From the NCBI GenBank assembly GCA_049325535.1, contig JBMOKY010000001.1, forward strand, positions 221,002 through 285,001: DNA of 64,000 nt. The letters run 5' to 3'. Every line of letters starts with the position of its first letter. Positions within the stretch are counted from its first letter, which is position 1. Positions 4,128 to 35,270 of the stretch are shown one piece after another. The position numbers and the translations under genes were made by a program. This DNA comes from Patescibacteria group bacterium. Lineage in GTDB: Bacteria; Patescibacteriota; Patescibacteriia; UBA10025; JAHIVO01. The notes under the pieces were generated by a model. The model saw only the letters and a list, made by a program, of their open reading frames with translations. It was not told the DNA's origin and ran no database searches.

Positions 4128-5876
4128 ATGGCGATTAATCTCCTCCCCAGCGAGGAAAAAGCAAAAGCAAAAATAGAAAAATCAGCACCCGAGCAAACCA
4201 TTGCCATGACCGGACCGACTGCGGCTGAAAAAAATAAACCCACGGTCAAGCGGGCAGGTGTTTTGACGTTTTTCAAAGGAGCGTTCAGCAAGCCGAAACA
4301 GAAGCCTGAGGAGGAAGCGGGAGTGCCGATCCCCGAGCGGAAGGTGCGTTTTGAAGAGCATGTGGTGTATCAACCTACGCCGGTTGAGCCGAAGAAGATT
4401 GTCACCTTTCAGCCAAAACCGAAAGAAGAAAAAAAATCAAAGTCCGCGTCGCCGTTGCCGGCGGATAGGGGAGGTTTTTTTGCGCGTTTCATCAGGGTGA
4501 AGCCTGCACCAGAAAAGCCGGCTGCTCCGACCGGGGTCGTGGGTGCGGAAGCATTTCCGCGGTTCGCGCATGTACGCACCGAACATCTGTCGGAGACTTC
4601 AGGTACCGCCAAAAAGCGGAATGGAAATGTCATCAAAGTTACCACCGCGGCGCCGGAAGCGCGATCAACTAATACGCGTCATGATCGACCGTCGCTGTTC
4701 AAACGGATCGCTGCCTGGTTACGTTCATTATTTGGAACGAAATCACGAGAACAGAAACTGCCGCTGCGCGATCAATCTGAAGTGGCTCCCGTGCCCGCAT
4801 CGGTGCCGCAGCAGTCAGTCAGATATAAAACAGTTTCTATGCCCGCACCGCAAGTACGCGTGGCGCCCGTGCCAGTAGTGCCAATCAGCAAACCGCCTCT
4901 GGCTGCGCCGCACGCTGAAACTGCGCGTCCGATAGTACCCCCGATACCTAAACCGTCGGCACCGGTCGTTCCGCCTCCGCTCCCGCCCCAGCCACCGAAA
5001 CCAGTGCCACCGATACCCATTCTGCCTCCAGAAAAAAAACACCAGCATGAAAAAAAACAAACGGTGCAGTTTACCTCAGCACCAGAGCTGAAAGATGGCC
5101 CAGCCCCAGTTGCGCCGACAGTGCAGTCGCGGGGCTTTATGAGCAGGTTGCTTGCGGGTCTGCGGGGACTTTTTCGCACCCGTGCCAAGGCAGCACTGAC
5201 AGGCGCTGCATCAGGTGGAGGTATCGGCCAAAAAACCGATGTACCAATCACGCCAGCGGGGATGAACTGGGATGTCAATCTAGTTCCGGAAGAAGCACTA
5301 GAGCAAGAAATTTCCGTGTCGCGGCTGCTGCTATTGGCTACGTTCGTCACCATCGCCATCGGGGTGGTGTTTGGCGGCTGGCTGTGGGCAAACTGGTATT
5401 TCAATTCCATCACGACCAATATCAACGAGATCAATAATCAAATCGCTATTTCCGATATTCAAATCCGATCCTATGATACGATGCAGGACGAGGTGAAGGA
5501 TTTACAGGCGAAAATTACGAACGTCAAAACGCTGCTCAATAAGCATATTTATTGGTCGCGGTTGTTTTCAAAACTGGAGCAGTACACGACTCCTGACGTG
5601 TATTTCACGTCACTGACCGCCGACGTCAATGGCTCGATCAATCTGTCTGCCGTCGGGCGAAATTATAATGCCGCCATAAAGCAATTGATGGTGTACAATC
5701 AAGCGGATGATTTTGTCTCCTCGGTGACTATATCGGGCATCACCTTCCGTACCTCGAGCGCGTCAGGCGCCGCTGCTAGTCAGCCGGCGACTTCGGTAGT
5801 TGCCGATCCGCCGGTCACCTTTACCGTGGATTTGAAGGTGCTCCCCGACATTTTTTACTTTACTCAAACCCCATGA
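4128..5876 (+). CDS. pilN: PilN-like pilus assembly protein with ~390-aa K/P/A-rich insertion
   Basis: Starts MAINLLPSEEK, the conserved PilN INLLP PilM-binding peptide. A long lysine/proline-rich low-complexity segment follows, then a single TM helix (LLLLATFVTIAIGVVFGGWLW) and a PilN-type periplasmic domain. Confidence 0.75.
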   Translation: MAINLLPSEEKAKAKIEKSAPEQTIAMTGPTAAEKNKPTVKRAGVLTFFKGAFSKPKQKPEEEAGVPIPERKVRFEEHVVYQPTPVEPKKIVTFQPKPKEEKKSKSASPLPADRGGFFARFIRVKPAPEKPAAPTGVVGAEAFPRFAHVRTEHLSETSGTAKKRNGNVIKVTTAAPEARSTNTRHDRPSLFKRIAAWLRSLFGTKSREQKLPLRDQSEVAPVPASVPQQSVRYKTVSMPAPQVRVAPVPVVPISKPPLAAPHAETARPIVPPIPKPSAPVVPPPLPPQPPKPVPPIPILPPEKKHQHEKKQTVQFTSAPELKDGPAPVAPTVQSRGFMSRLLAGLRGLFRTRAKAALTGAASGGGIGQKTDVPITPAGMNWDVNLVPEEALEQEISVSRLLLLATFVTIAIGVVFGGWLWANWYFNSITTNINEINNQIAISDIQIRSYDTMQDEVKDLQAKITNVKTLLNKHIYWSRLFSKLEQYTTPDVYFTSLTADVNGSINLSAVGRNYNAAIKQLMVYNQADDFVSSVTISGITFRTSSASGAAASQPATSVVADPPVTFTVDLKVLPDIFYFTQTP

Positions 5877-6445
5877 ATCCCAAAGCATTAAAACGTCGCA
5901 TCGCATTTATTTTCAGCCAGTATTTTGTGTTGGTGGTGATTGGGTTTGTGGTGGTGATTCTCGGTTTGGGATATCTCATTTTTATCCAGGGTATCGTCAG
6001 CGATATCCAGGAAGTCGGGATGGTAGACCTTACGTCGCAGCTCCAGACGCTAGACCAGCGGCGGGTCACATTGGAACGGCTTGAGGACCTGCAATTGCAG
6101 TACCAGCAGATCACGCATGACCAGGTACGTCAGGCGGAGTCCGTATTGCCCACGGCTGCGGAAATCCCACAGATCATGATTGAACTCAAGGACTTCGTGC
6201 TGCAAAATCAGCTGGATCTCCGCGCCCTCGATAGCGGCCCATTGCAGGAGCCGGTTGCCGCTCCGAGCGCCACGGTCAAAACGCTGAATATCTCCCTGAC
6301 CATCGATGGTATCGTCAGCTATGCCAAGCTGAAGGATTTCCTGGATAATGTCAGCCAGCGGCTTCCATTACTGGAATTAAACGCAATCAGTTATTCGCCC
6401 AGCAACACAAGTTATACGCTTAATTGCACCCTGTACTATCAATAG
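5873..6445 (+). CDS. pilO: PilO-like pilus assembly protein
   Basis: ATGA start/stop overlap with pilN. N-terminal TM helix, then a coiled-coil-like segment (QLQTLDQRRVTLERLEDLQLQYQQ) and a small C-terminal domain. Position is after pilM-pilN. Confidence 0.6.
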   Translation: MNPKALKRRIAFIFSQYFVLVVIGFVVVILGLGYLIFIQGIVSDIQEVGMVDLTSQLQTLDQRRVTLERLEDLQLQYQQITHDQVRQAESVLPTAAEIPQIMIELKDFVLQNQLDLRALDSGPLQEPVAAPSATVKTLNISLTIDGIVSYAKLKDFLDNVSQRLPLLELNAISYSPSNTSYTLNCTLYYQ

Positions 6446-6451
6446 CATCGT

Positions 6452-7375
6452 ATGTTAATACAACGTCGCGGACTAAATAAACGAACAACGTATCTGCTGA
6501 TCACCGCACTCGTGGTGATGCTGGGTGGTGGCTATTTCGTGTACTCGCAATTTTACGCGTCAAGTGAAGGGGTCACGACGCTCGGCACGACCGGCGGCAG
6601 CGCTTTGGTCCCGTCGCAGGTGGCCTCGCTCGATGATTCAATATTTGATGATCCGCAGCTTTTTACCCTGGAGCGTGATCAATTCGCCGGCTATACGGAG
6701 CAAACATCGGGCGCAGCAATTGATCCGAAATTGCCTCTGGCACCGGTTAACGTTTCCATCCAAAATCCCGGTATCGGCGCCACACTGGTCATTCATTGGC
6801 AGACACCCGCATACGCCAATTACACCGAGGCAAGAATCTATCGATCCGAGGTCCAAAACACGCTGGGAACCCGTATCGCCACGCTGGATGTCGATCAGGC
6901 CAACCGCATCATGTCGTATGAGGACACGTCAGTGGAAAATAATCGTCGGTACTACTATCTGATCCGCCTCGCTACTTCAGCCGGTATCGAATCGACCAAC
7001 GCAGTGCAGTCGGCCGCTATTGCCACTGATGATTTGCCGCCCGCGGCACCGCACAATGTATCAGTCGTCTCCGTCGGTGATGATTTGGAAGTACGCTGGC
7101 ATCTGGAAAATGCTGATGATGTCGCCGCTGTCCGAATTTACCGTTCGTTGGTTCCCGGAGAGATCGGCGAGCTGCTGGTGGAGGGGGCGCCGCAATCTGG
7201 ATCTGATGAAACTGATCCGGAGTATACGTATCGTGACGGATCGATAGACGTCAATACGACGTATTATTATACGGTGACTGCCCAGGACGCGAGTGGCAAT
7301 GAATCATCGCGGGATATACTCAGCGTGCCCTACAATGTCAATCCGTTTGCACCGGTAGATTTTACTACTTCGTAA
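6452..7375 (+). CDS. Membrane-anchored protein with two Fn3-like domains (occupies PilP/PilQ position)
   Basis: N-terminal TM anchor. Two beta-sandwich signatures (YYYLIRLATSAG; YYYTVTAQDASGNES), typical of fibronectin type III. Confidence 0.55.
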   Translation: MLIQRRGLNKRTTYLLITALVVMLGGGYFVYSQFYASSEGVTTLGTTGGSALVPSQVASLDDSIFDDPQLFTLERDQFAGYTEQTSGAAIDPKLPLAPVNVSIQNPGIGATLVIHWQTPAYANYTEARIYRSEVQNTLGTRIATLDVDQANRIMSYEDTSVENNRRYYYLIRLATSAGIESTNAVQSAAIATDDLPPAAPHNVSVVSVGDDLEVRWHLENADDVAAVRIYRSLVPGEIGELLVEGAPQSGSDETDPEYTYRDGSIDVNTTYYYTVTAQDASGNESSRDILSVPYNVNPFAPVDFTTS

Positions 7376-7381
7376 TCAATC

Positions 7382-9145
7382 ATGGCTGATCAATTTTCCC
7401 AATCCTACCAAGGTCAATCTCTGTTTGAAACGCTGGCTCAGCAGCGGTCTATTCCTGCTGAAAAAATCACGGCGATTCGTCAGCAATTTCCTGAGGACGA
7501 AGAGGCCATCCGGGAGCTGATACAGAAAGGGTTTGTCTCTGAAGAAGAGGTGGCAAAAGTGCGGGCGCAGATGCTGGGCGTGTCGTATATTGATCTATTC
7601 GGTAAATCAATTTCTCAGTCGATTCTCAATCTGATCCCTCGGGAGCTTTCAGAAAATTACCATGTCGTTACTTTTAATAAAACAGGCAATACCATCGACA
7701 TCGCCATGGTTAATCCCGGTGATTTCAAAGCCATCGAGGCGGTGGAATTTATCGCCCGGGAAAATGGGTTCAAGCTAAATTATCATCTGATATCAGAGAG
7801 CGGATTTCGTCAGGCATTTAAGCAATTTGCCACGCTGGGGGCGGAAGTCGAGGAAGCATTGGCGAGCACTGAGAAACAGGACAGTGAGGACGACGCGCTG
7901 GAAGAGGCGCTGTCCAAAGAAAAGGGGATGGAGGAAGTCGTCAAGAGCGCCCCGGTGTCTAAAATGGTCAATGTCATTCTCAAACACGCCGTGGAAGGCA
8001 ATGCGTCTGATATCCACATCGAGCCGGTGGAAAATGAGACCCGGGTGCGCTACCGGGTGGATGGTGTGCTGCACACGTCACTGGTCCTGCCGCGCTACGT
8101 GCACAATTCCATCGTGGCCCGTATCAAAGTCATGTGCAATCTCAAGCTGGATGAGACACGTGTGCCGCAGGACGGGCGTTTCCGTACCGAGTGGGGCGGC
8201 CGGATTATCGATTACCGCGTATCGACACTGCCGCTCTTTGCCAATGAAAAAGTCGTGATGCGTATTTTGGACCGATCATCGGTGGTTCTCGATTTGGAAA
8301 AATTAGGATTTGAAGGGCGGCAACTGGACCTGATGAAAAAAGCCACTGAAAAATCAGTCGGCATGATCCTGCTCACTGGCCCGACCGGTTCCGGTAAGTC
8401 GACGACGCTCTCGGCATTGCTGACTATTCTCAATGAAGAATCGGTTAATATCGTAACATTGGAAGATCCGGTTGAGTATTATATCGAAGGCGTCAATCAG
8501 TCGCAGATCAATCCTGACGTCGGTCTGACATTTGCCGCTGGACTGCGGTCTATCCTCCGCCAGGATCCGGATGTGATCATGGTCGGTGAAATTCGTGACA
8601 ATGAAACTGCGGAATTGGCCGTACACGCATCTCTGACCGGCCATCTGGTACTATCGACGCTCCATACCAATGACTCATTCGGCGCCATTCCCCGCATGAT
8701 TGACATGAAGATTGAGCCGTTCCTGATCACCGCGTCGCTGTCCACCATCGTGGCCCAGCGTTTGGTGCGCCGCGTCTGTCAGTATTGCCAAAAGGAAGTG
8801 CAGCTGCCTGACGAGCTGAAGCGGGACGTGGAAAAACAAATCGCCGGTATCCCACCGGAGGTGTTCAAACGCCGTTTGGGAACAGAAAAACCCGAATTGA
8901 AATTTTACGAGGGGACTGGATGCGCGCGTTGTGAAAACACCGGGTATAAAGGGCGTATTCTCATCACGGAGATATTGGAGATTGACGAGGAGATGAAAAA
9001 CGTCATCGTCACCAATCCCAGCATTGACTCAATCCGGGAGACGGCACAGCGACAGAACATGCTGACGATGGCGCAGGATGGCATCCTCAAGGCGATGGAA
9101 CGAAAGACGTCATTTCGTGAAATTTTAAGTGCGACTCGAACATAA
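7382..9145 (+). CDS. pilB: Type IV pilus assembly ATPase PilB (GspE family)
   Basis: Walker A LLTGPTGSGKSTTL. Asp/His boxes. C-terminal tetracysteine CQYC...CARCENTGYKGR. N-terminal T2SSE_N-like domain. Confidence 0.9.
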   Translation: MADQFSQSYQGQSLFETLAQQRSIPAEKITAIRQQFPEDEEAIRELIQKGFVSEEEVAKVRAQMLGVSYIDLFGKSISQSILNLIPRELSENYHVVTFNKTGNTIDIAMVNPGDFKAIEAVEFIARENGFKLNYHLISESGFRQAFKQFATLGAEVEEALASTEKQDSEDDALEEALSKEKGMEEVVKSAPVSKMVNVILKHAVEGNASDIHIEPVENETRVRYRVDGVLHTSLVLPRYVHNSIVARIKVMCNLKLDETRVPQDGRFRTEWGGRIIDYRVSTLPLFANEKVVMRILDRSSVVLDLEKLGFEGRQLDLMKKATEKSVGMILLTGPTGSGKSTTLSALLTILNEESVNIVTLEDPVEYYIEGVNQSQINPDVGLTFAAGLRSILRQDPDVIMVGEIRDNETAELAVHASLTGHLVLSTLHTNDSFGAIPRMIDMKIEPFLITASLSTIVAQRLVRRVCQYCQKEVQLPDELKRDVEKQIAGIPPEVFKRRLGTEKPELKFYEGTGCARCENTGYKGRILITEILEIDEEMKNVIVTNPSIDSIRETAQRQNMLTMAQDGILKAMERKTSFREILSATRT

Positions 9146-9159
9146 TTATCACTAAACCT

Positions 9160-9543
9160 ATGACACCCGCAAGCCCAATCAAAATTCTTTTGGTGGAGGA
9201 CGATACATTTTTAGCCGGCATGTATGTGACCAAGCTCAATCTGGATGGGTTTCAGGTTGAATTGGCGGCCGACGGCGAGCAGGGGCTGGAGCGGGCCCAG
9301 GCGACGAAGCCGGATATTGTATTACTCGATGTCATATTGCCCAGAATGAGCGGCTTTGATGTGCTAAAAAATATTAAATCCGACGCCACGCTCAAAGACG
9401 TCCCCGTGGTGATGCTGACCAATCTGGGTCAGCCGGAGGACGTGCAGAAAGGGTTGGCTCTTGGTGCGGTTGATTACCTGGTCAAGGCGCATTTTATGCC
9501 GTCTGAAGTAGTGGACAAAGTTAAGGAAATATTAAAAAAATAG
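9160..9543 (+). CDS. Single-domain CheY-like response regulator
   Basis: KILLVEDD...DIVLLDVILP...K receiver signature. 127 aa, no output domain. Confidence 0.85.
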   Translation: MTPASPIKILLVEDDTFLAGMYVTKLNLDGFQVELAADGEQGLERAQATKPDIVLLDVILPRMSGFDVLKNIKSDATLKDVPVVMLTNLGQPEDVQKGLALGAVDYLVKAHFMPSEVVDKVKEILKK

Positions 9544-9564
9544 CCTGACTCAGCAGAGAATCTC

Positions 9565-10770
9565 ATGAGCGAATTTTCCTACAAAGCGCGCAATGAACAG
9601 GGCCAGACCATAGACGGTGTGGTCGTGGCGCCGTCGGAAAATATTGCCTATGGCATGCTGCGCGACAAAAAACTCTTTATCATCGCGCTCAAGGAACAGC
9701 GGGTGCGGAAATTATTTGGTGGACTGTCGCTCAGTAGCGGTGTCAAGGCAAAAGATATCGTCGTTTTTGCCCGGCAGCTGTCGGTGATGATTACCTCGAA
9801 CGTGCCGATTGTCCGCGCGCTCAAGGTGCTGGTCGCACAAACCAATAATGTCAAACTTAAATCAGTACTGTCGGATGTAGCCGATGAGGTCGACGGTGGC
9901 GCCAAACTGTCGCAGGCGCTGGCTAAGTATCCGCGAATTTTCAGCAATTTCTTCGTGCAGATGGTCCGTTCCGCTGAAACGACCGGGCGCTTGGACGAAA
10001 TTCTAGAGTATCTGGCTGACCAGCAGGAAAAAGATTATGATCTGAAGGCCAAGGCCCGCGGCTCCATGATTTATCCCGCGTTTATCGTCACCGCCCTCGC
10101 GGTAGTCGGTGCTATGATGATGATGTTTGTGTTGCCCCAGATCACCGCAGTATTTGAGGGGGCGGATGTGGTGCTGCCGCTGACGACCCGGATATTCATC
10201 GGCATCAGCGATTTTTTGCGGGGATTCTGGTGGCTGGTGCTACTCATCCTTATTGGCGCGGCATTTGCATTCCGCGCCATCAATAAGACGAACCGGGGAC
10301 GCCATCAGATTGACCTCCTGAAAATCCGCACACCCATGATCGGTCCGCTTTTCAATCGGCTGTATCTGACCCGGTTTTCTCGGTCGCTATCTACGCTGCT
10401 GGCCTCAGGCGTGCCATTGACCCGCTCACTGGATATCGTGGCTGATGTGGTGGGAAATACGCTGTATCATGACCTGACCCGGGAGACTATCAAACGAGTC
10501 GAGGGTGGCGCGTCCATTACTACGGTATTTGTCACCAGCAAAGACGTGCCGATTATGCTGTCACAGATGATGAGCGTAGGTGAGCAGTCCGGGCAGCTGG
10601 ACAAGATTTTGGAAAAAATCGCCCAGTTTTACCAGCGCGAGCTGGAAAATTCACTGGCCAATCTGACTACGGCTATTGAGCCGATCATCATGATTGTGAT
10701 CGGAGTGGCCGTGGGATTCCTCGTTTCCGCAATTATCCTTCCTCTGTATAATCTGTCCAGCGCGATTTAG
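9565..10770 (+). CDS. pilC: Type IV pilus platform protein PilC (GspF family)
   Basis: Two GspF repeats and three TM helices. About 400 aa. Adjacent to pilB. Confidence 0.85.
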   Translation: MSEFSYKARNEQGQTIDGVVVAPSENIAYGMLRDKKLFIIALKEQRVRKLFGGLSLSSGVKAKDIVVFARQLSVMITSNVPIVRALKVLVAQTNNVKLKSVLSDVADEVDGGAKLSQALAKYPRIFSNFFVQMVRSAETTGRLDEILEYLADQQEKDYDLKAKARGSMIYPAFIVTALAVVGAMMMMFVLPQITAVFEGADVVLPLTTRIFIGISDFLRGFWWLVLLILIGAAFAFRAINKTNRGRHQIDLLKIRTPMIGPLFNRLYLTRFSRSLSTLLASGVPLTRSLDIVADVVGNTLYHDLTRETIKRVEGGASITTVFVTSKDVPIMLSQMMSVGEQSGQLDKILEKIAQFYQRELENSLANLTTAIEPIIMIVIGVAVGFLVSAIILPLYNLSSAI

Positions 10771-10802
10771 ACCGTTTTTACAGGCTTGTTTTTGTATATT
10801 GA

Positions 10803-10831
10803 TTGACATTTGCATGAAAATGTGATATTAT
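10803..10831 (+). promoter_or_regulatory. Strong sigma70-like promoter of major pilin gene
   Basis: TTGACA at 10803-10808, 17-nt spacer, TATTAT at 10826-10831 with upstream TG (extended -10). A second TATAAT lies at 10841-10846. Confidence 0.55.
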
Positions 10832-11018
10832 ACACTTGTGTATAATGGCAGCATAGTTCATTTTTGATTCACGTTAACTATCCCGGCAAAGCAATACATG
10901 TAGGTTCCGCCCAGTGTTCCTGTGAAGGCACGGGTCAGGCGGATCCGTGATCTGTGGATTTACACAGGGCGCGGCTGAAAGCTACATGTCTTTGCCACTA
11001 AGGAAAGGGGGTGAAGAC

Positions 11019-11480
11019 ATGAAACGAAAAGGTTTTACACTCATTGAGCTATTGGTCGTCATCGCGATTATCGGTATTTTGGCAACCATCGGTTTGGTTG
11101 CATTGAATGGTGCACGGGAAAAGGCTCGCGATGCCACTCGCAAATCAGATATTTCCCAGATCAAGACTGCCCTGGTCCTCTACTCAGATGACTACGGTAG
11201 CGCGTTCCCTGGAGGCGACTTCGCCGGTCTGGACGCTGCTTTGGTGACCGCATATCTCTCGAAATTACCGCATGATCCGCAGTCAGCCACCAATGGTGGT
11301 ACGCACGCGGACTATGCCTATGAATCATGCACAGTCAGCCAGCGCTCGACATTCTTACTGTATGCGCAGCTGGAATCCCCAAACAGCACTGATAACTTCT
11401 TCTACTTCTACGTAGCCGGTAACGGCGACTCAGGAGATAAGGTTTCTGGTGCCACCATGGGAGCATGTGCTGATCACTAA
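11019..11480 (+). CDS. pilA: Type IV major pilin (prepilin with class III signal)
   Basis: MKRKGFTLIELLVVIAIIGILA is a textbook prepilin leader, G|FTLIE cleavage/methylation site and hydrophobic helix. Two C-terminal Cys. Extended SD GAAAGGGGGTGA lies 6 nt upstream. Confidence 0.85.
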   Translation: MKRKGFTLIELLVVIAIIGILATIGLVALNGAREKARDATRKSDISQIKTALVLYSDDYGSAFPGGDFAGLDAALVTAYLSKLPHDPQSATNGGTHADYAYESCTVSQRSTFLLYAQLESPNSTDNFFYFYVAGNGDSGDKVSGATMGACADH

Positions 11481-11510
11481 TTTCGTGATTTGCAATCTCG
11501 TATACCAAAA

Positions 11511-11541
11511 GCGGTTTGCCATCCTGGCGAGCCGCTTTTTG
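11511..11541 (+). terminator. Rho-independent terminator after major pilin
   Basis: gcggtttgcc atcct ggcgagccgc stem (with G-U pairs) followed by ttttt. Confidence 0.55.
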
Positions 11542-11573
11542 GGTTTGGGGGTATCTGATATACTGATTCATAT

Positions 11574-12557
11574 ATGAACGACGCTCCCGATACCGCAGTT
11601 ATTATTTTGAATTGGAACGGCAGATGCCATCTGCAGGATTGTCTCAGTACCGTCCTGGCGCAGCGCACCCATCGGCAGCGAGTCATGGTGGTGGACAATG
11701 GCTCGACCGATGATTCGGTGGTTTTACTGCGCCAGATGTTTCCCACGGTGCAGATTATCCAAACGGGGAAGAATCTTGGTTTTGCCGAGGGGAATAACGT
11801 TGGCATCCGCCAGGCGCTCCAGGATCCACAGATCCGGTATATAGCGGTACTCAATAACGACACGGCAGTGGATGGACGGTGGCTCGAGTCGCTGATTGCG
11901 GTGGCGGAAGCCGACAAGCATATTGGGGCGGTAGGCAGCCGGATGATGCGGTTTTACGAGCGGGACGTGTTTGATTCCGCGGGAGATTTTGTATTAGCCG
12001 GTACGCTCAAAGTAGTTACTCGCGGTGCCGGGGAAAGAGACCGAGGGCAGTACCGTGCGGTCGAAGAGTGCTTTAGCGCGCGCGGTGGTGCCGCTCTTTA
12101 CCGTCGGGAGATGCTGGAGGACGTTCGGCTCGGCCACGATTATTTCGATTCGCACTATTTCGCCTATGCCGAAGATAGCGATCTATCGATTCGGGCACGG
12201 CTGCGGAGCTGGAAAATAATGTATGCCCCGGATGCCGTCGTGTATCATAAAGTATCGGCCACGACGAAAACACTATCCTCGGATTTTATGCGATACCATA
12301 CCGGCCGCAACCGGGTATTGACTACGATGAAAAATCTGCCATTTCGACTCTGGGTGACGGCATTACGCGGTACGGCGCATGGACCCTCAGATGAGTCGGC
12401 GACTGTGGGCTATTGGCGGTATGTCCGTATAGTTGGCGCAGTGATATGGGCGCTCCCTCGGCTGGTGCGCCTGCGCCGTCTGATCCAGCGCCGACGTACG
12501 ATTTCGATCCATGATATACTGCAGTGGCAAAAATATTTTTCTATTCCCCACCCATGA
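11574..12557 (+). CDS. Family 2 glycosyltransferase
   Basis: VIILNWNGRCHLQDCL...VVDNGSTDDS and a DxD-containing GT-A fold N-terminus. Confidence 0.85.
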   Translation: MNDAPDTAVIILNWNGRCHLQDCLSTVLAQRTHRQRVMVVDNGSTDDSVVLLRQMFPTVQIIQTGKNLGFAEGNNVGIRQALQDPQIRYIAVLNNDTAVDGRWLESLIAVAEADKHIGAVGSRMMRFYERDVFDSAGDFVLAGTLKVVTRGAGERDRGQYRAVEECFSARGGAALYRREMLEDVRLGHDYFDSHYFAYAEDSDLSIRARLRSWKIMYAPDAVVYHKVSATTKTLSSDFMRYHTGRNRVLTTMKNLPFRLWVTALRGTAHGPSDESATVGYWRYVRIVGAVIWALPRLVRLRRLIQRRRTISIHDILQWQKYFSIPHP

Positions 12558-14497
12558 ATTCACGTACGAAAATAATTTCTGGATTATTTATACTGGCACT
12601 GCTGGTTGTTTCCTTTTTTTCCGGTGAATGGAGCAAATGGTTGCAGGCAATCGTGCTGGTGTTTGCTTTTCTTTTAGCATTTCTCACTATCCGTACCTGG
12701 ACGCCGTCATCAGATTCATGGAGCCTGAGAAAAATCATATTCAGTCCGCACGCGTATCTCGTGCTATGGCTCGGGCTGGCAAGCGCCTCAATCGGCTGGT
12801 CGGTTGATTGGTACGATTCGCTGACTGCCACGTCACTGCTGATGGCCTATGCACTGGTGTGGTGGGCGGCATATCGGTTTTTCCGCACAGCCGATACCGT
12901 GCGCGCGCTGGCCTATGGTGTCGCCGGTACGGGGGTGGTAGCGTCGGTAGCCGGATTCATTCTCTATATCAATCAGACAGCGGATCGGCTATCAGGTTTC
13001 CTCTTCAATGCCAATGCTATTTCGAGCCTGCTGATACTGACCGCTCCGGTCGCTTGTGTCATGGCGGCACAGCAGACCCGAAAAAAATATCGCTGGCTTG
13101 TGGGCGTTGCCAGTGTTATCATCATCGCGGCGCTGGCGCTGACCTATTCGTTTACCGCTTGGGTGAGCGTCATGCCGTCCGCGCTCATCGGCCTGTACTA
13201 TTTCCGGCGATCAATATTCACCCGCCGACGGGTGATGGTGGCAGCAGGAATCGTGCTGATTGGCATTATCGGTATGATCGGATTCCGGTATGCTCAGTCA
13301 CGGGATGTACAGTCGGCGATACGGGTGTACCAGGCTATATCATCGAGTGAACTCAACCGTAGTTTTTCCCAGCGGATTAATTTTAATCTCTCAGCCGCTG
13401 ATATATTCCGTGATCATCCGTTGGTCGGTACCGGTATCAACACATTCCAGAGTGTCTATTCACAGTACGCGCGTACTATTCTCGAGCAGCCGCGCTACGC
13501 ACACAATTATTATATCCAGACCGCCGCCGAGCTTGGGATCATCGGCATGGTGGCACTGCTGGGATTTTTACTGATGGCTGGTCGGCAGGTGCTGCACGTT
13601 GTGCGTGCTACTCCGGATCCGCGGCATCGGCATATTCTGGTAGGACTGTCGCTCGGCGTATTAGCATCCGCGGTGCATGCTGTGTTTGATTTTGGTTGGC
13701 AGTTTCCTGCGGTGTTCCTCATGTTTTGGGTGATAGCCGGCGCGCTGGCCGGACAGTATGCCGGGCATGGACGCGGCCAGTCGGAGCAAGGAGCCGAGCC
13801 TTTACCCCGTCGCGCCATGCTCATCAATGCGCTGTATCTGGTGTTTGGGTTAGCGGTACTCCTTCGCGGGTTATCGGTTTTTATGGGTGTGAATGCATTT
13901 GATACAGCCGCCATTCACGTCACCCGTGATGAAATACCCGAGGCAGCTGCAGCATATGAACAGGGTTTGCGCTACGATCCTGATCCGACTATGCTGGCGC
14001 AGTATTCGGGATTGGTCATCCAGCACCGTACTGAGCTGGAAGCGGTGCAGTTTGACGGCTTACTACCTCGCGTGGAGGCCATGGTGCGTCGCTCGCCGGA
14101 TGATTACCTGGCACGGTGGACATACGGGCGGGTATTATATTCGCTGAAGCGGTATGACGAGGCCATTACCGAGTATACTCAGGCCATCGCATTGAATCCG
14201 AAATTCCGTCCTGACCTTTACTATGATTTAGCCTATACGTATTTTATTACGGATCAGCCAGCGCTCGCTAAGCAGACTATCGCCCATATACTCGTAGAAT
14301 ACGGACCGACCACGCTGACGCGCAATCCAAATCTGCCTGATCAGCTCGCGTCTTTGCATTATCTGCTGGGGGAACTGTACCGGACGGAGGGAAACGCTGA
14401 AGCGGCGCGAGAACGCTATGAAATGGCCTTGGAACTCAACCGCTGGTACACGCCAGCCTATGCCGGCCTGGATGCGTTGTATCAGGAGGGGAGTTAG
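12554..14497 (+). CDS. Wzy_C (O-antigen ligase / O-oligosaccharyltransferase-like) membrane protein with C-terminal TPR repeats
   Basis: ATGA overlap with the upstream GT2 stop. About 10 TM helices with a large loop typical of WaaL/PglL/TfpO. C-terminal ~200 aa contain TPR-like repeats (YDEAITEYTQAIALNP...). Confidence 0.7.
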   Translation: MNSRTKIISGLFILALLVVSFFSGEWSKWLQAIVLVFAFLLAFLTIRTWTPSSDSWSLRKIIFSPHAYLVLWLGLASASIGWSVDWYDSLTATSLLMAYALVWWAAYRFFRTADTVRALAYGVAGTGVVASVAGFILYINQTADRLSGFLFNANAISSLLILTAPVACVMAAQQTRKKYRWLVGVASVIIIAALALTYSFTAWVSVMPSALIGLYYFRRSIFTRRRVMVAAGIVLIGIIGMIGFRYAQSRDVQSAIRVYQAISSSELNRSFSQRINFNLSAADIFRDHPLVGTGINTFQSVYSQYARTILEQPRYAHNYYIQTAAELGIIGMVALLGFLLMAGRQVLHVVRATPDPRHRHILVGLSLGVLASAVHAVFDFGWQFPAVFLMFWVIAGALAGQYAGHGRGQSEQGAEPLPRRAMLINALYLVFGLAVLLRGLSVFMGVNAFDTAAIHVTRDEIPEAAAAYEQGLRYDPDPTMLAQYSGLVIQHRTELEAVQFDGLLPRVEAMVRRSPDDYLARWTYGRVLYSLKRYDEAITEYTQAIALNPKFRPDLYYDLAYTYFITDQPALAKQTIAHILVEYGPTTLTRNPNLPDQLASLHYLLGELYRTEGNAEAARERYEMALELNRWYTPAYAGLDALYQEGS

Positions 14498-14546
14498 GTT
14501 ATACTGTCTATATAATCATTGGTGTGGCGAGGGTGCATGCGGCCGT

Positions 14547-15035
14547 ATGAGTAAAGGGTATACATTAATCGAACTGCTGGTAGTGCTGGCCATCATCGGG
14601 ATATTAGCCGCCATCGGCATCACTACTCTCAATGGTACTCGTGGTCAGGCGCGGGATGCAACTCGGTTTTCAGATTTTGAAGCACTGCGCGGAGCGCTGG
14701 AATTGTACGCGGATACGTACGGCAGCTATCCCCGACCCGTGACGGCCGGTGGCGCCGGACCGGACCTGAGTACCGCCGGACTCAATGGGACGATTTTTTC
14801 CCAGACGGATAATCCTCTGTCACCGGCGTATATGAGCCGGTCTGTCCGCGATCCGATCAATGACGCGACCAAGGGACTGTACTATTATTATGACACGAAT
14901 GATTCGCCTACGGTGAACCACCGGAATTACGTCATCTGTTTCCACAAGGAAAGCCGGGATCAGCAGCGGTTCTACTATTATTCGACCGCGGTCCAAGGTT
15001 ACGGACCGGTATGCCCGACATTACCCGCAACTTAA
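14547..15035 (+). CDS. Type IV pilin (second prepilin)
   Basis: MSKGYTLIELLVVLAIIGILAAIG, a G|YTLIE prepilin site. The track ORF begins upstream at 14418, but the pilin start is at 14547. Confidence 0.8.
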   Translation: MSKGYTLIELLVVLAIIGILAAIGITTLNGTRGQARDATRFSDFEALRGALELYADTYGSYPRPVTAGGAGPDLSTAGLNGTIFSQTDNPLSPAYMSRSVRDPINDATKGLYYYYDTNDSPTVNHRNYVICFHKESRDQQRFYYYSTAVQGYGPVCPTLPAT

Positions 15036-15046
15036 ATGCAATCCGT

Positions 15047-15469
15047 ATGTATCATACCAATCAGCGCGGCATCAGCATATTGGCCGTGCTTATCATCATC
15101 ATAACTGCCTGCCTGGTCATCGGCGGCGGATTTCTGCTTATCAATCAGGAAAAAGCTCGGACGCGCGATGCCAAGCGCATGTCTGATATGACGCGGGTAC
15201 AGGCGGCTTTTGAGCTGATGTTCAATCAGACGGCCAGTTATGCCATGGCGGCCACCGACGGATGCAGCCAGACCGGCATGCCGGTGAGCAGCTGTGCCCT
15301 GGGCACATTTCTCCCCTCAATCGGACAATTCAAAGATCCCGGCAAATACGCCTATACCGTGACCGTGGTGCCTACGGAATCAACCTATCAGGTGACCTTT
15401 ACCCTAGAAAAAGACTACGGTACGCTCAAGGCGGGCAAACACACTCTGTCACCCGACGGTATCAAGTAA
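15047..15469 (+). CDS. Pilin-like protein with degenerate prepilin signal
   Basis: MYHTNQRGISILAVLIIIITA. Hydrophobic N-terminal helix after Gly, but position +5 is Ala rather than Glu. Confidence 0.55.
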   Translation: MYHTNQRGISILAVLIIIITACLVIGGGFLLINQEKARTRDAKRMSDMTRVQAAFELMFNQTASYAMAATDGCSQTGMPVSSCALGTFLPSIGQFKDPGKYAYTVTVVPTESTYQVTFTLEKDYGTLKAGKHTLSPDGIK

Positions 15470-15549
15470 ATAAATTTCTCACCGCACCGATGCCATGAAG
15501 GTCAGCTTTCATGGAGCGAGGGTTTTTCCTACCCAGAGAGGCTGTTTTT

Positions 15550-15558
15550 TGGTATAAT
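15550..15558 (+). promoter_or_regulatory. Extended -10 element (TGgTATAAT) immediately 5' of pilD internal ATGs
   Basis: tggtataat at 15550-15558. ATGs at 15562 and 15568 lie 4 and 10 nt downstream, suggesting a leaderless or short-leader pilD. Confidence 0.3.
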
Positions 15559-15561
15559 AAT

Positions 15562-16317
15562 ATGACTATGGATGGTTTTTTGGTGTTTATTTTAGGGTTG
15601 GTGGTGGGCAGTTTTATGAATGCCGTTATTTACCGTCTCCACAAAGGCGTCAGTTTCGTGCGGGGGCGATCATATTGCCCGCATTGCAAACATGAGCTTC
15701 ATTTTTTTGATTTAATCCCGATATTTAGTTTTATCATGCTGCGGGGTCGGTGCCGCTACTGTGCCAAGCGGATTTCCTGGCAGTATCCGCTGGTGGAACT
15801 AGCCACCGGCATAATTTTTTTCTCGCTCTGGTGGCAATTCGGTTTGTCCTGGGATTTGGGTGTATACGCAATATATTCGGTATTTCTATTGATTATATTT
15901 GTTTTCGATTTGCGGTACTATCTCATTCTCGACGTGGTAAGCGTCCCGGCTATGGTGATCGCGGCACTGGCATCCTATTTCATACTTGATCTCGATATAC
16001 TAAGCATGGCAATCGGCGCACTCATTGGTGGTGGTTTTTTTTATCTTCAGTATCTGGTTTCACGAGGGAAATGGATCGGCGGCGGCGATATCAGATTGGG
16101 TGTGGTGATGGGGCTGATGCTGGGTTTTCCCAATATACTTGTGGCGCTCTTCGTCGCCTATTGCGTCGGGTCGCTGGTGGGAATCGGACTTATCCTGGCT
16201 CATACCAAGCAGTGGAAAAGTCAGGTGCCATTTGGCACCTTTCTCAGCGCGGCAACTATCATTACGTTTTTTTTCGGCACTGCGGCGGTTAATTTTTATC
16301 GGGGATTCGTGTTATGA
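15562..16317 (+). CDS. pilD: Prepilin peptidase PilD (A24 family); start uncertain (15511/15562/15568)
   Basis: LVVGSFMNAVIYRL. Tetracysteine CPHCKH...CRYC. GGGD in KWIGGGDIRLG. Confidence 0.8.
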   Translation: MTMDGFLVFILGLVVGSFMNAVIYRLHKGVSFVRGRSYCPHCKHELHFFDLIPIFSFIMLRGRCRYCAKRISWQYPLVELATGIIFFSLWWQFGLSWDLGVYAIYSVFLLIIFVFDLRYYLILDVVSVPAMVIAALASYFILDLDILSMAIGALIGGGFFYLQYLVSRGKWIGGGDIRLGVVMGLMLGFPNILVALFVAYCVGSLVGIGLILAHTKQWKSQVPFGTFLSAATIITFFFGTAAVNFYRGFVL

Positions 16318-16976
16318 GTCGAAAGGGACATCAAGGATTTACGCTGGTTGAATTACTGATAGTCATGTTTATTATCGGCGTATTGACCGTCGCCATCATC
16401 ATCAATTTCAATCGTGGGGACAAAACACAGGACCTGCGTTCAGTCAGCACCCAACTAGTTCAACAGCTGCGCTTTGCGCAGGCCTATGCCACTGGTGGCA
16501 ATAGCATCAATTTTTGTCGGCAGGGGTCGTCCGATAATGAATATGAATCGTGCGCGGATGACGTGTTTTGCGGGGGAGGGGCCGGGGACTGTACCAATGG
16601 CGTCCCCCCGGGTGGGTATGGCATCCACTTTTCGGCGGTATCAAGTTATATGCTTTTTGCCGATACCAATACGCTTCAGCATTCCTATTCTACGGAAGAA
16701 CCAATCATCAGGCGAGAGGATACACAGCAGACCAACGTAGGGGTGACCGCGTATCGCGTCGGCGCGGATACGTATGTGCCGCAGACAAATCCGCTGGATG
16801 TCGTTTTTACCCCGCCCACCGGCGTCATCTCATTTCATATTGATGGTGCGCCTGTCACAGAAACTGAGGTTGCACTGCTGGTGAAGCACGGTGAATTGGA
16901 TTCCGTATGCAAAAAAATTACCATTAATCGCGTTTCAAATCATATCAGTGAAACGCAAAGCAATTGTACGCTGTGA
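16314..16976 (+). CDS. Pseudopilin / minor pilin (GspH/FimT-like)
   Basis: MSRKGHQGFTLVELLIVMFIIGVL, a G|FTLVE site. ATGA overlap with pilD. Confidence 0.75.
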   Translation: MSRKGHQGFTLVELLIVMFIIGVLTVAIIINFNRGDKTQDLRSVSTQLVQQLRFAQAYATGGNSINFCRQGSSDNEYESCADDVFCGGGAGDCTNGVPPGGYGIHFSAVSSYMLFADTNTLQHSYSTEEPIIRREDTQQTNVGVTAYRVGADTYVPQTNPLDVVFTPPTGVISFHIDGAPVTETEVALLVKHGELDSVCKKITINRVSNHISETQSNCTL

Positions 16977-17665
16977 AACGCAACTGCCACAATCAATCGG
17001 GTCAAACGCTTCTGGAGGTATTGTTTGCCATGGTTATCCTGCTGACCGCGCTGACTGCGACTATCGTACTGATCGTCAATAGTATCAACGCCAGCAAAGA
17101 AAGCCGCAATAAACTGATCGCGACGAGTCTCGCGCGGGAAGCGGTAGAGATCGCCAGGAATATGCGAGACAGCAACTGGGTGACGACGGCGCAGCGTACC
17201 TGCGATGCCGGGCCATATGCGGGGTTTGCGTGTGATGGCAATACGTTTTGTGGACTGGGTAATACCTGCGCGGCGGGTACCTGGGACGCGGGGTTAGTCG
17301 GAGCAAATCCGGCAGTTCCCGTCATCACCGGGAGCGATCCGTTTACGTTTGATTTTACTGCCACTGATTTTTCCGATGCGATCGCACGGGTACGGCTGCA
17401 GAATCATTTTTACCGGCAGGGCAGCGGGGTGACGGGAGCCCCCACTGAATTCTATCGTCTGGTGTTTATTAATCCGATTTGCCATGATGCCGCGGGCACT
17501 GAGTTTATCGTCGATCGTGCATCGAATGATGTCTGCGGAGCCGGCAGCGCCACCGGGTACGATGATACTGTCGGATATCGCGTCATCAGCGAAGTGCGCT
17601 GGGGTTCCACCTCCGGTCGTCGGGTGACCATTGAGGACCGTATTTATAATTGGCCGACGCTGTAG
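16964..17665 (+). CDS. Minor pilin (PilV/GspI-like)
   Basis: ...NQSGQTLLEVLFAMVILLTALTA, G|QTLLE with Glu at +5. Alternative GTG start at 16973. Confidence 0.7.
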   Translation: MYAVKRNCHNQSGQTLLEVLFAMVILLTALTATIVLIVNSINASKESRNKLIATSLAREAVEIARNMRDSNWVTTAQRTCDAGPYAGFACDGNTFCGLGNTCAAGTWDAGLVGANPAVPVITGSDPFTFDFTATDFSDAIARVRLQNHFYRQGSGVTGAPTEFYRLVFINPICHDAAGTEFIVDRASNDVCGAGSATGYDDTVGYRVISEVRWGSTSGRRVTIEDRIYNWPTL

Positions 17666-17666
17666 C

Positions 17667-18386
17667 ATGTTTCACCATAAACACAATCAACGCGGTTTTA
17701 CGCTCATCGAGATGATCGTGGCATTGGCGATTTTCAGTCTGACCATCCTTCTGGCGACCAATGTCTATCTGCTGGTGAGCAATACCCAGCGGCGCGCCTT
17801 GGCTGCACAGAAAATTCTCGATGATGTGCGGGCGCTGTTTGAGACGATGACGCAGGAGGTCCGCCTCGGTACTATCAATTATGCATATTATGACCAGCAG
17901 AATATTGATTTACATCCTGCCGCTGGAACTGGGATTCCAATCCTGGCAGTCATCAGCCAGACGGGTAGCCAGGATTTTTTCCGGCTCCAGTCAGAACGGG
18001 TACAGTTCTGTGAGGAAATAACAGTTGGCGATTGTGACGCCGGGGGGACGGGCTGGCTGGACGTGACACCCGAGGGCGTGCGTGTAGAAGATCTACGGTT
18101 TGTCATCACACCGAGCGCAGATCCGTTTACCGCCATCGAACCGGTTGACTGCGCGTTGGGAGGCGATGCGGACTGCACCGCCGCCGGCCTCGTGTCCTAC
18201 CGCTGCGCCGCGGATAATGCCTGTCGTTACTTTAGCAACGGATATAATATCCAGCCGCAGGTACTGATCATGATAAAATCGACTTCTGTCGCACCGCGTC
18301 TGATTGAACAGGCGTCGGTGGATATGCAGACCATCATCAGTTCGCGCATTATTACCAGTGCCATTCAGAACAGTTACCATGATTAA
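17667..18386 (+). CDS. Minor pilin (PilW/GspJ-like)
   Basis: MFHHKHNQRGFTLIEMIVALAIFSL, a G|FTLIE site. Confidence 0.75.
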   Translation: MFHHKHNQRGFTLIEMIVALAIFSLTILLATNVYLLVSNTQRRALAAQKILDDVRALFETMTQEVRLGTINYAYYDQQNIDLHPAAGTGIPILAVISQTGSQDFFRLQSERVQFCEEITVGDCDAGGTGWLDVTPEGVRVEDLRFVITPSADPFTAIEPVDCALGGDADCTAAGLVSYRCAADNACRYFSNGYNIQPQVLIMIKSTSVAPRLIEQASVDMQTIISSRIITSAIQNSYHD

Positions 18387-19785
18387 TCCACCGTACAACC
18401 AACAGAAGGGAATCGTGCTGGTCTATGTCTTGCTCATCATTTTTATCATTACCGCGATCTCTATCACCATATCGGTGGTGATCATCAATGAACTGAAATT
18501 GACCAGCACCGCAGCTGATGCGACGCAAGCCTATTATGCCGCCGAGTCCGGTATCGAGCGCGGCCTGTTTACCATCAAACGCATGCGTGCCGATGGGACG
18601 CAAACGCTGCAGGATGCGGTAGCGGCTATTCAAGCGCTGCAGGATTCCCTGACCAATGGTACGACCTATGACGATGCCGACACGAGCGAACAAACCGCGG
18701 TAATCGAAAATCAGGCAATCGCCGAGAATCATTTTGTCCAGGCGGATTATTATGATTTTGAGGATCCGCTCGACCTGGATGCCACACCAAATCAGATCGC
18801 CCAATCACTCGTCATCACCAATACCGGCACAGATCCTGATTCCTGGGCCGAGGTTTCCTGGATTGCCTGGGGTCAGGACGGTACGCTCGGGGAATCGGTG
18901 GCCGCCCGGAAGCTGATCGGTCCGACGGATCTGGCCAATGGCTGGACGATTTCCGATTTGGACGTGTTTGATGAGATCGACCCGAGAGGATACCGCATCC
19001 GCATCAAAGCGCTCTTCGGGGATATCTCCCGCATTTCCGTCATTCCGTATGACAGCCTCGGTGATCGGGTGGAGTTGCCATCGCTGATTGAGGTAAAGTC
19101 AGTAGGCCAACGTTCATCATATAAACAAGCGCTGACGGCAACCGTTCCATGGAAGATTCCGTTGTTTGGGCTGTATGATTATGTACTGTTTAGCGAAGGG
19201 GATTTACTCAAAACTATTATCCTGAGCAATCCGACCTATAGTTCTGGTCCGATCCATGTGGAGGAAGCACTGGCGGAGGGTGCCTCATGTAATTCCTGTG
19301 GCATCTGCCAAACCACTGCCGGATGGCTGGCCCTGTCGTGTCTGTCTCCTGCCGGTGACCGGGCGCAGTGCGGCACGCTGAGTTCAGCAGATGGCTGCTC
19401 TATCAGTCCGATTGCCCCGGCGGAAATCTGGGGGTACCGTCTGCCCATACCATTGAGCGTCCCTGAGGGAGACGAATATTATGTGTCGCTGCGCATGTTC
19501 TATCAGGGTATCTCCAGCGGTCGGGATATCGCCGTGGAAATAAGCGGCCAGTCGTCGGTCATCGACGATCAGGCAGGGGGTCAAAATGGTGCGTGGAAGA
19601 CGTGCACTATTCCCGAATCGTTTCCGGTGGGATCTAGTACGCTTCCGGTGAGCGATCCGTCCCGGGTCATTCAGATCAGCGACCATCCGTATGGCGCCGC
19701 TGCCGGCGGGTGGATTGCAGGTGACAGCGTGTTTGTCGATTGGTATCAACTAAGTACGTTCAAACTATTCCAAGACTGCCAATAA
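18379..19785 (+). CDS. PilX-like / large minor pilin
   Basis: ATGATTAA overlap with the previous gene. MINPPYNQQKGIVLVYVLLIIFIITAI N-terminal hydrophobic segment, as in PilX_N. Large Cys-containing C-terminal domain. Confidence 0.6.
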   Translation: MINPPYNQQKGIVLVYVLLIIFIITAISITISVVIINELKLTSTAADATQAYYAAESGIERGLFTIKRMRADGTQTLQDAVAAIQALQDSLTNGTTYDDADTSEQTAVIENQAIAENHFVQADYYDFEDPLDLDATPNQIAQSLVITNTGTDPDSWAEVSWIAWGQDGTLGESVAARKLIGPTDLANGWTISDLDVFDEIDPRGYRIRIKALFGDISRISVIPYDSLGDRVELPSLIEVKSVGQRSSYKQALTATVPWKIPLFGLYDYVLFSEGDLLKTIILSNPTYSSGPIHVEEALAEGASCNSCGICQTTAGWLALSCLSPAGDRAQCGTLSSADGCSISPIAPAEIWGYRLPIPLSVPEGDEYYVSLRMFYQGISSGRDIAVEISGQSSVIDDQAGGQNGAWKTCTIPESFPVGSSTLPVSDPSRVIQISDHPYGAAAGGWIAGDSVFVDWYQLSTFKLFQDCQ

Positions 19786-35263: not shown

Positions 35264-35270
35264 GCTGCCT

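Follow-up and report, generated by a model that had tools for sequence, protein, structure and literature searches.

A TPR-Bearing Wzy_C Protein Encoded between Pilin Genes, a Candidate Pilin Glycosylation Enzyme in the Type IV Pilus Locus of a Patescibacteria Genome

A 64 kb stretch of a Patescibacteria genome (contig JBMOKY010000001.1, positions 221,002–285,001; hereafter, the window) carries a complete type IV pilus gene cluster, recognised by Pfam, NCBIfam and neighbour-gene comparison, and this cluster surrounds a cassette of four genes that probably serves to glycosylate pilins. All four lie on the + strand: a pilin gene (pilinA, 11019–11480; 153 aa; N_methyl, E 1.8e-9), a family 2 glycosyltransferase gene (GT2, 11574–12557; 327 aa; Glycos_transf_2, E 5.9e-23, and Glyco_tranf_2_3, E 2.2e-16), a gene for a polytopic protein that joins a Wzy_C domain to C-terminal tetratricopeptide repeats (TPR; Wzy_C-TPR, 12554–14497; 647 aa) and a second pilin gene (pilinB, 14547–15035; 162 aa; N_methyl, E 1.3e-7). 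From its linkage, its fold and a conserved catalytic histidine, we infer that Wzy_C-TPR represents a probable new family of O-oligosaccharyltransferases (O-OTases) that bear a TPR and are linked to pilins. A sequence-only reading of this DNA had described the same gene order and had the two enzyme genes coupled by an ATGA overlap. Coordinates and Pfam matches bear this out: the ATG of Wzy_C-TPR (12554–12556) overlaps the TGA of GT2 (12555–12557), the two are translationally coupled, and the order recurs in 15 distinct genome loci, which speaks against a chance arrangement.

The association with pilin genes, which had been proposed from the window alone, is conserved in related genomes. A scan of one genome per species, in which open reading frames (ORFs) were compared with the window proteins, returned 16 loci, 15 of them distinct (L-numbers denote related genome or metagenome loci, P-numbers database proteins). 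Wzy_C-TPR lies inside the pilus cluster and between pilin genes in 15 of the 15 genome loci, at 27–40% identity, and further metagenome loci show the same linkage. Each locus has one or two pilinA-like genes, then Wzy_C-TPR, then pilinB and/or an atypical pilin-like gene, pilinC, and finally the prepilin peptidase gene pilD. GT2 stands between pilinA and Wzy_C-TPR in nine loci (L001–L007, L010 and L011); in these, as in the window, it is the only gene between the pilin gene and Wzy_C-TPR. It is missing from L012–L016, where Wzy_C-TPR directly adjoins a pilin gene, as it also does in L022, L035 and L040. Loci L008 and L009 are the same pilus segment in inverted orientation at both ends of a 19.9 kb contig (JBIOWE010000017.1), with two LigA genes facing each other (7903–9936 and 9981–12014); this inverted repeat is most likely a palindromic assembly artefact.

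The interval that holds the cassette varies in content from locus to locus. In the window it is bounded upstream by the genes for the PilB ATPase (7382–9145, +), a receiver-only response regulator and the PilC platform protein (9565–10770, +), all assigned by Pfam and in conserved synteny, and downstream by that for PilD (15511–16317, +; A24_N_bact and Peptidase_A24). With the pilinC family as a probe, which finds pilus loci with or without the enzyme, 80 metagenome loci were collected. The PilC-to-PilD interval was whole in 22 loci, 14 with pilin genes only and 8 with a large polytopic enzyme. Orthologues of the window protein occupy the slot in L022, L024, L026, L029, L035 and L040, while L023 (4473–7439) and L027 (4960–7938) carry fusions of GT2 and Wzy_C-TPR, 988–992 aa in length. 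Other, very distant Wzy_C-TPR families of 699–781 aa are found in L059, L071, L086, L095 and L098, proteins of the YfhO family in L078 and L100, and proteins resembling PMT_2 or TMEM260, of the protein-O-mannosyltransferase type, in L076, L078 and L098 (YfhO, PMT_2 and TMEM260-like genes at L076:8522–10141, L078:8518–13904, L100:2337–7871 and L098:15166–16408). Genes for GT1/GT4 and GT2 glycosyltransferases and for methyltransferases often accompany the slot enzymes.

These enzymes have in common a type of reaction, the extracytoplasmic transfer from polyprenol-linked sugars, and a place beside pilins, but not ancestry. That unrelated transferases occupy the same pilin-side slot points to pilins as the common acceptor, and is the strongest indirect evidence for it. 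P. aeruginosa shows this pattern too: downstream of pilA, its accessory gene is in some cases tfpO, which encodes a Wzy_C protein, and in others tfpW, which encodes a GT-C enzyme with a TPR (10.1101/2020.04.19.049825, PMC9829042). In the two fusion proteins, the order is GT2, two to three hydrophobic segments, Wzy_C and TPR, and their last 660 residues can be aligned with the window protein over its full length (23% identity, E 3e-37). Their GT2 domain differs from the window GT2 (25% identity over 100 aa), and GT1/GT4, methyltransferase and further GT2 genes precede them. Judged by domain content, such a fusion would link the GT2 and Wzy_C-TPR activities in a single polypeptide.

Wzy_C-TPR itself consists of a WaaL-like core of 12 transmembrane (TM) helices (residues 1–418, nt 12554–13807), an extra 13th TM helix (419–445, nt 13808–13888) through which the C-terminal domain reaches the other side of the membrane, and a TPR domain (446–647, nt 13889–14497), all on the + strand. 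The core is defined by the Wzy_C match (PF04932, residues 186–336; 71.8 bits against a cut-off of 31.7) and by profile and Foldseek matches to the WaaL structure 7TPG. The C-terminal domain matches TPR families at E values of 1e-9 to 1e-14 (TPR_2 at 1.7e-14, TPR_11 and others) and has the conserved motifs FDPDP, NPxFRPD and SNPNLPxQL. An AlphaFold2 (AF2) model built from the family alignment (pLDDT 87.6, pTM 0.87) has 12 membrane helices, a disordered loop at 405–418, a long helix at 419–457 and about nine TPR helices (461–646). When the full-length protein was compared with the PDB, only its TPR part was matched, and WaaL appeared after the TPR had been trimmed off. The core profile then had a single match, the WaaL of Cupriavidus metallidurans (7TPG, E 1.9e-5), with H317 aligned on H313 and R274 on R265. 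In Foldseek, 7tpg_B was the best match to the membrane domain (TMt 0.60 over 426 columns), while the TPR part matched the TPR domain of O-GlcNAc transferase and designed TPR proteins (CTPR).

All 32 sequences compared have H317 and R274, which align with the essential residues H338/R288 of Escherichia coli WaaL and H349/R298 of NmPglL (PMC3643930), and with the AHN and S-D-R motifs of P0109, a protein with PglL_A, Wzy_C_2 and Wzy_C domains. A positive-inside analysis places all of the Lys/Arg-rich loops on one side of the membrane (the N-terminus and residues 47–64, 110–112, 174–180, 217–226, 345–358 and 405–420) and the invariant residues on the opposite side (E25/W26, R145, N152, N154, S199/T201/W203, R274, G292, G294, E311–H317 and D379). 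The loop with the catalytic histidine is extracytoplasmic by homology to WaaL, and as four helices follow it, the TPR domain would also be outside. In the predicted topology it therefore shares a side with the processed pilins and the catalytic loop. That the remaining outside-loop residues are strictly conserved argues, at the level of sequence, for an active enzyme. The GT2–Wzy_C-TPR fusions do not fix an N-in topology, as the number of TM segments between their domains (two to three) is ambiguous.

A search of 5.8 billion proteins returned about 33 full-length relatives at 30–97% identity, all with the Wzy_C plus TPR architecture, and every named one is from a metagenome-assembled genome (MAG) of Patescibacteria or Candidatus Kerfeldbacteria. 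The boundary of the family is sharp: a profile of the TPR-less core scored its 34 members at 326–607 bits, and the next matches at 141, 111 and 99 bits. One of the proteins outside it (P0051) has a TPR and is encoded among lipoprotein genes. The family arises from among generic Wzy_C enzymes, and its link to pilins is a trait of this clade that its neighbours do not share. Some distant homologues are labelled IctB (TIGR00947, a bicarbonate transporter), a label that was rejected as the match reached 39 bits against a cut-off of 366.4.

Within the Wzy_C superfamily, Wzy_C-TPR falls outside PglL, TfpO and TfpM and outside the four described O-OTase families. The kinship with PglL/TfpO that the sequence-only reading had drawn holds insofar as the core is homologous to WaaL/PglL-type enzymes and retains the catalytic histidine, but the protein is not a PglL/TfpO member. 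P0109 is a distant match of the core profile (E 5.8e-6; hhalign probability 96.4%). Positions equivalent to the three PglL signature motifs of Schulz et al. (PMC3643930) could be aligned, namely N152/N154 for Q-x-N, G292/G294 for G-x-G and H375/D379/P385 for H-x3-E-x-P. They were set aside as proof of a PglL-type enzyme, as G-x-G also occurs in CmWaaL, and some pilin-slot proteins lack H-x3-[DE] while Wzy_C proteins unconnected with pilins have it. With PglL and PglS, Wzy_C-TPR shares Wzy_C, the catalytic histidine and the equivalent of R298, but the R224 equivalent is replaced and the C-terminal domain is a TPR. PglS, a proven O-OTase, is described with 13 TM helices followed by a large C-terminal domain in the periplasm (PMC12800693), a plan matched by the model of Wzy_C-TPR, with the TPR in the place of that domain. 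WaaL (7TPG/7TPJ) aligns in the catalytic histidine and the periplasmic-loop arginine; it lacks both the 13th TM helix and the C-terminal domain, and its acceptor is the lipid A-core of diderm lipopolysaccharide (LPS), whereas the pilus cluster here has no LPS context.

The TfpO (PilO) and TfpM enzymes of Pseudomonas, Acinetobacter and Moraxellaceae resemble Wzy_C-TPR in having Wzy_C with an essential histidine, a gene downstream of a pilin gene and the character of a strain-variable accessory. They are proteobacterial proteins of 420–470 aa with no additional domain (PMC9829042), whereas Wzy_C-TPR is longer (647 aa), adds TM13 and a 200-aa TPR, comes from another phylum and, in the window, has a GT2 gene intervening. 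The TPR extension, which had been called atypical, is so in comparison with PglL and TfpO, but it has precedents in TfpW and WsfB. TfpW, the arabinosyltransferase for group IV pilin of P. aeruginosa, is a protein of 646 aa with 11 predicted TM helices and a periplasmic C-terminal TPR; tfpW lies just downstream of pilA, and the core of its product is of the GT-C type (ArnT/Emb-like) with a DDX motif and uses a polyprenyl-phosphate monosaccharide donor (10.1101/2020.04.19.049825). Compared by description only, the two designs are nearly identical (646 and 647 aa, polytopic, an outside TPR, a place beside a pilin gene), but the catalytic cores are not homologous, GT-C in one case and Wzy_C/WaaL-like in the other. 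Wzy_C-TPR matched no PMT, ArnT or GT-C family in Pfam.

WsfB, the O-OTase for the S-layer protein of Paenibacillus alvei, also has Wzy_C followed by a C-terminal TPR, and in Geobacillus stearothermophilus a protein of its own, WsaA, encoded next to WsaB, supplies the TPR (PMC2943079). The genes for WsfB and WsaB belong to slg clusters that also encode the complete glycan pathway, and the two enzymes glycosylate Tyr/Thr/Ser of the S-layer protein (PMC2943079). As described, WsfB shares with Wzy_C-TPR its domain design, a monoderm host and a protein acceptor; the context in the window is one of pilus genes instead. In Synechococcus, a pilin is reported to be modified by an Ogt that bears a TPR (PMC9306852). 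The recurrence of TPR on the acceptor side of protein glycosyltransferases supports, by analogy, a protein acceptor.

GT2 matches Glycos_transf_2 (PF00535) with 82.1 bits against a cut-off of 23.3. Its structure was modelled with AF2 from database homologues (pLDDT 93.6) as a GT-A domain followed by C-terminal helices, with no TM segment. About 50 clusters of orthologues were found, at 43–63% identity and all from Patescibacteria. The protein is soluble or peripheral. As it lacks an export signal and the globular domain of a pilin lies outside, a role in building a lipid-linked glycan at the cytoplasmic face is favoured. Direct glycosylation of pilins in the cytoplasm by GT2 was considered unlikely, because the globular domain of the pilin is exported. 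GT2 is an accessory partner, absent in about a third of the orthologous loci.

The pilins next to the enzyme were examined as acceptors. PilinA has a leader of five residues (MKRKG) followed by FTLIELLVV, with Gly-1, Phe+1 and Glu+5, and its first 50 residues are nearly invariant across loci. PilinB starts with MSKG followed by YTLIELLVV. The pilinC gene (15011–15469, +) lies between pilinB and pilD; its product retains the glycine at the presumed cleavage site (Gly-1) but has no Glu+5, and is marked by two invariant cysteines and an invariant S-Y. It gave no match in Pfam or NCBIfam, is conserved across all loci at 36–64% identity and, of all downstream neighbours of Wzy_C-TPR, varies least in occurrence; it may serve at the pilus tip or as an initiator pilin. 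The constant neighbours of the enzyme gene are pilinA-like and pilinC genes, and pilinB is missing in L013, L014, L016 and L027. PilinA ends in GACADH, with no C-terminal Ser/Thr. PilinB ends in CPTLPAT, and where the enzyme is present most of its orthologues carry C-P-[TS]-[LM]-P, in many cases extended by x-[TS], while two related pilinB proteins from enzyme-less loci end in CNPI and CNAL (these cases are few and non-independent). The acceptor of TfpO and TfpM is the C-terminal Ser/Thr of the upstream pilin (PMC9829042), which the C-P-T-L-P-x-T tail of pilinB recalls. This tail, or alternatively the Ser/Thr of the pilinA disulfide loop, is only a lead to the acceptor site, taken from sequence comparison.

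We propose that the type IV pilus locus of Patescibacteria contains a variable island for pilin glycosylation, of which the cassette would be one allele. On the cytoplasmic side of the membrane, a glycan would be assembled on undecaprenyl (pyro)phosphate, and GT2 would add one of its sugars. The window carries genes for UppS (34571–35263) and a polyprenyl synthase (35115–36323), which indicates that the lipid carrier is available; the initiating transferase and the flippase would be encoded elsewhere. After the lipid-linked glycan has been flipped to the outer face of the membrane, the 13-TM Wzy_C-TPR would act as a WaaL/PglL-like inverting transferase with His317, moving it to a Ser/Thr of a membrane-anchored pilin before assembly, and the outward TPR domain, rigidly attached via TM13, would dock the pilin. 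The sequence-only reading had both enzymes glycosylating one or both of the flanking pilins. Linkage, fold and histidine speak for that proposal, but the acceptor and the glycan are putative, and the part of GT2 is that of an accessory.

Several observations weigh against pilin glycosylation by the cassette. By Pfam and neighbour annotation, there is no initiating phosphoglycosyltransferase and no flippase among the window genes. The domain search that had been suggested as a check was positive for Wzy_C, well above its cut-off, but PglL_A (PF15864) and Wzy_C_2 (PF11846) gave no Pfam match at E ≤ 0.01, and PglL-type proteins are no closer to Wzy_C-TPR than generic Wzy_C proteins are. The nearest proteins outside the family, P0052 and P0053, have no TPR and come from polysaccharide loci with Polysacc_synt flippases and sugar-nucleotide enzymes. 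Grouping with such enzymes, together with a pilin linkage that is not conserved, was to refute the proposal. The context of these outgroups weighs against it, but the decisive half of the refutation fails, as the pilin linkage is strongly conserved. A second arginine, R215 of WaaL and R224 of PglL in the motif S-R-x-x-W, is reported to be functionally important (PMC3643930). Its position is Phe, Tyr or Leu throughout the orthologous family (S199-F200-T201 in the window protein, 13148–13156), so that the equivalent of WaaL R191/R215 is absent; it is kept in most other aligned Wzy_C proteins, including all other pilin-slot proteins and P0109, with Glu in P0102 and Lys in P0112 as the exceptions among outgroups. 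Its loss may reflect a different binding or handling of the donor phosphate(s). For GT2, the best PDB folds in Foldseek were the catalytic domains of ppGalNAc-T enzymes (E ~1e-14, TMq 0.60–0.65) and GlfT2 (TMq 0.64, rmsd 4.0); to judge from the model, these are generic GT-A matches from which neither donor nor acceptor can be resolved. A comparison of pilins from loci with and without the enzyme gave no clear acceptor-site signature: there was no clean loss or gain of Ser/Thr in pilinA or pilinC, and pilins of enzyme-less loci are still Ser/Thr-rich. In the literature, glycosylated pilins of the Candidate Phyla Radiation (CPR) are known from predictions only.

Some of these observations would be expected if Wzy_C-TPR were a general protein O-OTase in the manner of Neisseria PglL or WsfB, acting on many surface proteins, S-layer proteins included, with its gene merely placed in the pilus cluster. 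WsfB shows that a monoderm can use a Wzy_C protein with a C-terminal TPR in this way (PMC2943079), PglL glycosylates many proteins although its homologues are often pilin-linked (PMC3643930, PMC9829042), and the lack of a unique acceptor signature in the pilins fits as well. We regard this explanation as rather unlikely, given that the position in the pilin block is conserved over deep divergence, that the presence, absence and replacement of slot enzymes resembles the pilin-specific tfpO/tfpW, and that no S-layer gene or other candidate acceptor gene was found near the cassette in the window. A Wzy- or WaaL-like polymerase or ligase with a non-protein acceptor, making an envelope or pilus polysaccharide that is perhaps exported via the pilus machine, appears somewhat less likely again. 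No Wzx, Wzz, initiating transferase or sugar-nucleotide genes lie around the cassette in the window, enzymes of the protein O-mannosyltransferase type (PMT_2, TMEM260-like) are likewise found in the slot, and TPR is a protein-binding module that is present in the pilin glycosyltransferase TfpW. On the other hand, the Pfam family Wzy_C also includes polymerases and ligases, the outgroups P0052 and P0053 belong to loci with Wzx-type flippases, and a precedent has been proposed for the export of cyanobacterial hormogonium polysaccharide. YfhO enzymes, which are known for the glycosylation of teichoic acids, share the slot in two loci. Weak, far-sub-threshold NCBIfam matches of GT2 to HpsE and HpsN, and of one minor pilin to HpsC, point in the same direction, but these Hps matches are generic (46 bits against cut-offs of at least 300).

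It is very improbable that the protein is a non-catalytic factor for pilus assembly or stability, with a PilF/PilW/Tgl-like TPR and a Wzy_C-like domain that is a mere anchor. The residues H317, R274, R145, N152/N154, G292/G294 and D379 of the outside loops are invariant across 27–97% identity, the gene is coupled to GT2 and in some loci fused to a GT2 domain, and it is wholly absent from many sister pilus loci and so is not a core part of assembly. What suggests such a factor are weak matches at the TPR level to PilW and Tgl in NCBIfam, a JGI label on one homologue ('O-antigen ligase/Tfp pilus assembly protein PilF') and the loss of one canonical arginine; the PilW and Tgl matches are generic TPR similarity far below cut-off.

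Glycosylation of pilins in P. aeruginosa contributes to host specificity or phage escape. Among the Patescibacteria (CPR), type IV pili are the best-documented tools of host attachment, and a study of Saccharibacteria pili gave predictions of glycosylation sites but named no enzyme (PMC11623550). Searches of the open-access literature turned up no OTase or glycosyltransferase from a CPR pilus locus. If a dedicated, strain-variable island exists, it would supply concrete candidate enzymes for pilin glycosylation in Patescibacteria and would point to a part for pilus glycans in host specificity or phage escape there too. A more far-reaching interpretation is tentative. Under it, the island would be hypervariable, with at least four unrelated classes of polyprenol-sugar transferase (Wzy_C-TPR, GT2–Wzy_C-TPR fusions, YfhO, and PMT_2/TMEM260-like enzymes) swapped between the major pilin gene and pilD, and the Wzy_C-TPR family would form a fifth class of bacterial O-OTase and the first in monoderm, ultrasmall episymbionts, with a TPR that docks pilins and a catalytic site that dispenses with the canonical pyrophosphate-binding arginine, perhaps through a different donor chemistry; pilus glycans would then rank among the main variable surface features that govern host attachment or phage evasion in CPR bacteria. 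According to PMC12800693 and PMC9829042, no structure of an O-OTase was available. A Wzy_C protein with TPR and a defined acceptor encoded nearby would offer a compact system in which to study protein recognition by O-OTases, and could serve as a new enzyme for glycoconjugate engineering.

PilinA is probably the major type IV pilin, as it has its own near-consensus, conserved promoter and a strong hairpin with a U-run after its stop codon. The promoter is sigma-70-like (10803–10831, +; TTGACA-17-TATTAT plus an extended TG). It agrees with the consensus at 11 of 12 positions, which makes it the best candidate in its region, and its hexamers are invariant across eight aligned loci. Directly downstream of the pilinA stop, at about 11505–11546 (+), is an intrinsic-terminator-like hairpin followed by a U-run (minimum free energy −31.7 kcal/mol, z −4.2; none of 200 shuffles fold as well), and GT2 and Wzy_C-TPR are thus transcriptionally separated from pilinA.

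The 5′ leader upstream of pilinA contains a hairpin (10929–10956, +) of the form CACGGGUC-loop-GAUCCGUG followed by AUCUGUG. Its stem is 8 bp, the loop varies from 5 to 18 nt and the trailing AUCUGUG is invariant. A single copy of the 16-mer GGATCCGTGATCTGTG is present in the window and in each of 16 loci, always just 5′ of pilinA, although the proteins across those loci are only ~55% identical. Each change in the stem affects one base of a pair and keeps the pairing intact (C-G to U-G, G-U to A-U); double compensatory changes are absent. The variable length of the loop favours an RNA hairpin over a protein-binding site with fixed spacing. A scan of 10700–15600, the hairpin included, gave no Rfam match.

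A strain variant of the locus (L101/L102; Logan SRR28264341 and SRR12487018) differs from the window by 5–6% at the nucleotide level in the genes for PilB, the response regulator and PilC. There are no differences from the pilinA tail through the intergenic region and the whole of GT2 to nt 270 of Wzy_C-TPR, and only about five across the TPR domain and pilinB. The low-divergence tracts extend over 11472–12825 and 13928–15200, and the Wzy core between them (12826–13927) is at background divergence. This mosaic suggests recent recombination tracts within the cassette.

The pilus cluster further includes genes for PilM (2701–3843) and a PilO-like protein (5873–6445). Three of its large ORFs had no Pfam match (55–2694, 879 aa; 4128–5876, 582 aa; 6452–7375, 307 aa; up1, up3 and up5, respectively); all are conserved in related loci and may be CPR-specific components of pilus assembly or alignment. 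Between pilB and pilC is a receiver-only response regulator gene (9160–9543, +; 127 aa, no output domain), kept in nearly all related loci at 41–70% identity, and a second, similar receiver gene is found at 23659–24057. Three minor pilins and a PilX/GspK-like protein are encoded 3′ of pilD (16314–19785), followed directly by the gene for the NAD-dependent DNA ligase LigA (19789–21816). Nearly all related loci, distant ones included, have LigA in this position, an unusually stable synteny without an obvious functional link.

Further downstream, the gene for a DsbA-like thioredoxin (30161–30967) overlaps the start of one for a fusion of VKOR with Ham1 (ITPase-like; 30964–32019). The DsbA-like and VKOR pair is a system for extracytoplasmic disulfide formation, relevant to the conserved cysteine pairs of the pilins; the fusion of VKOR to Ham1 is odd. 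The gene for UppS overlaps the 402-aa polyprenyl synthetase ORF by ~150 nt as called, and the true start of the latter is probably further downstream.

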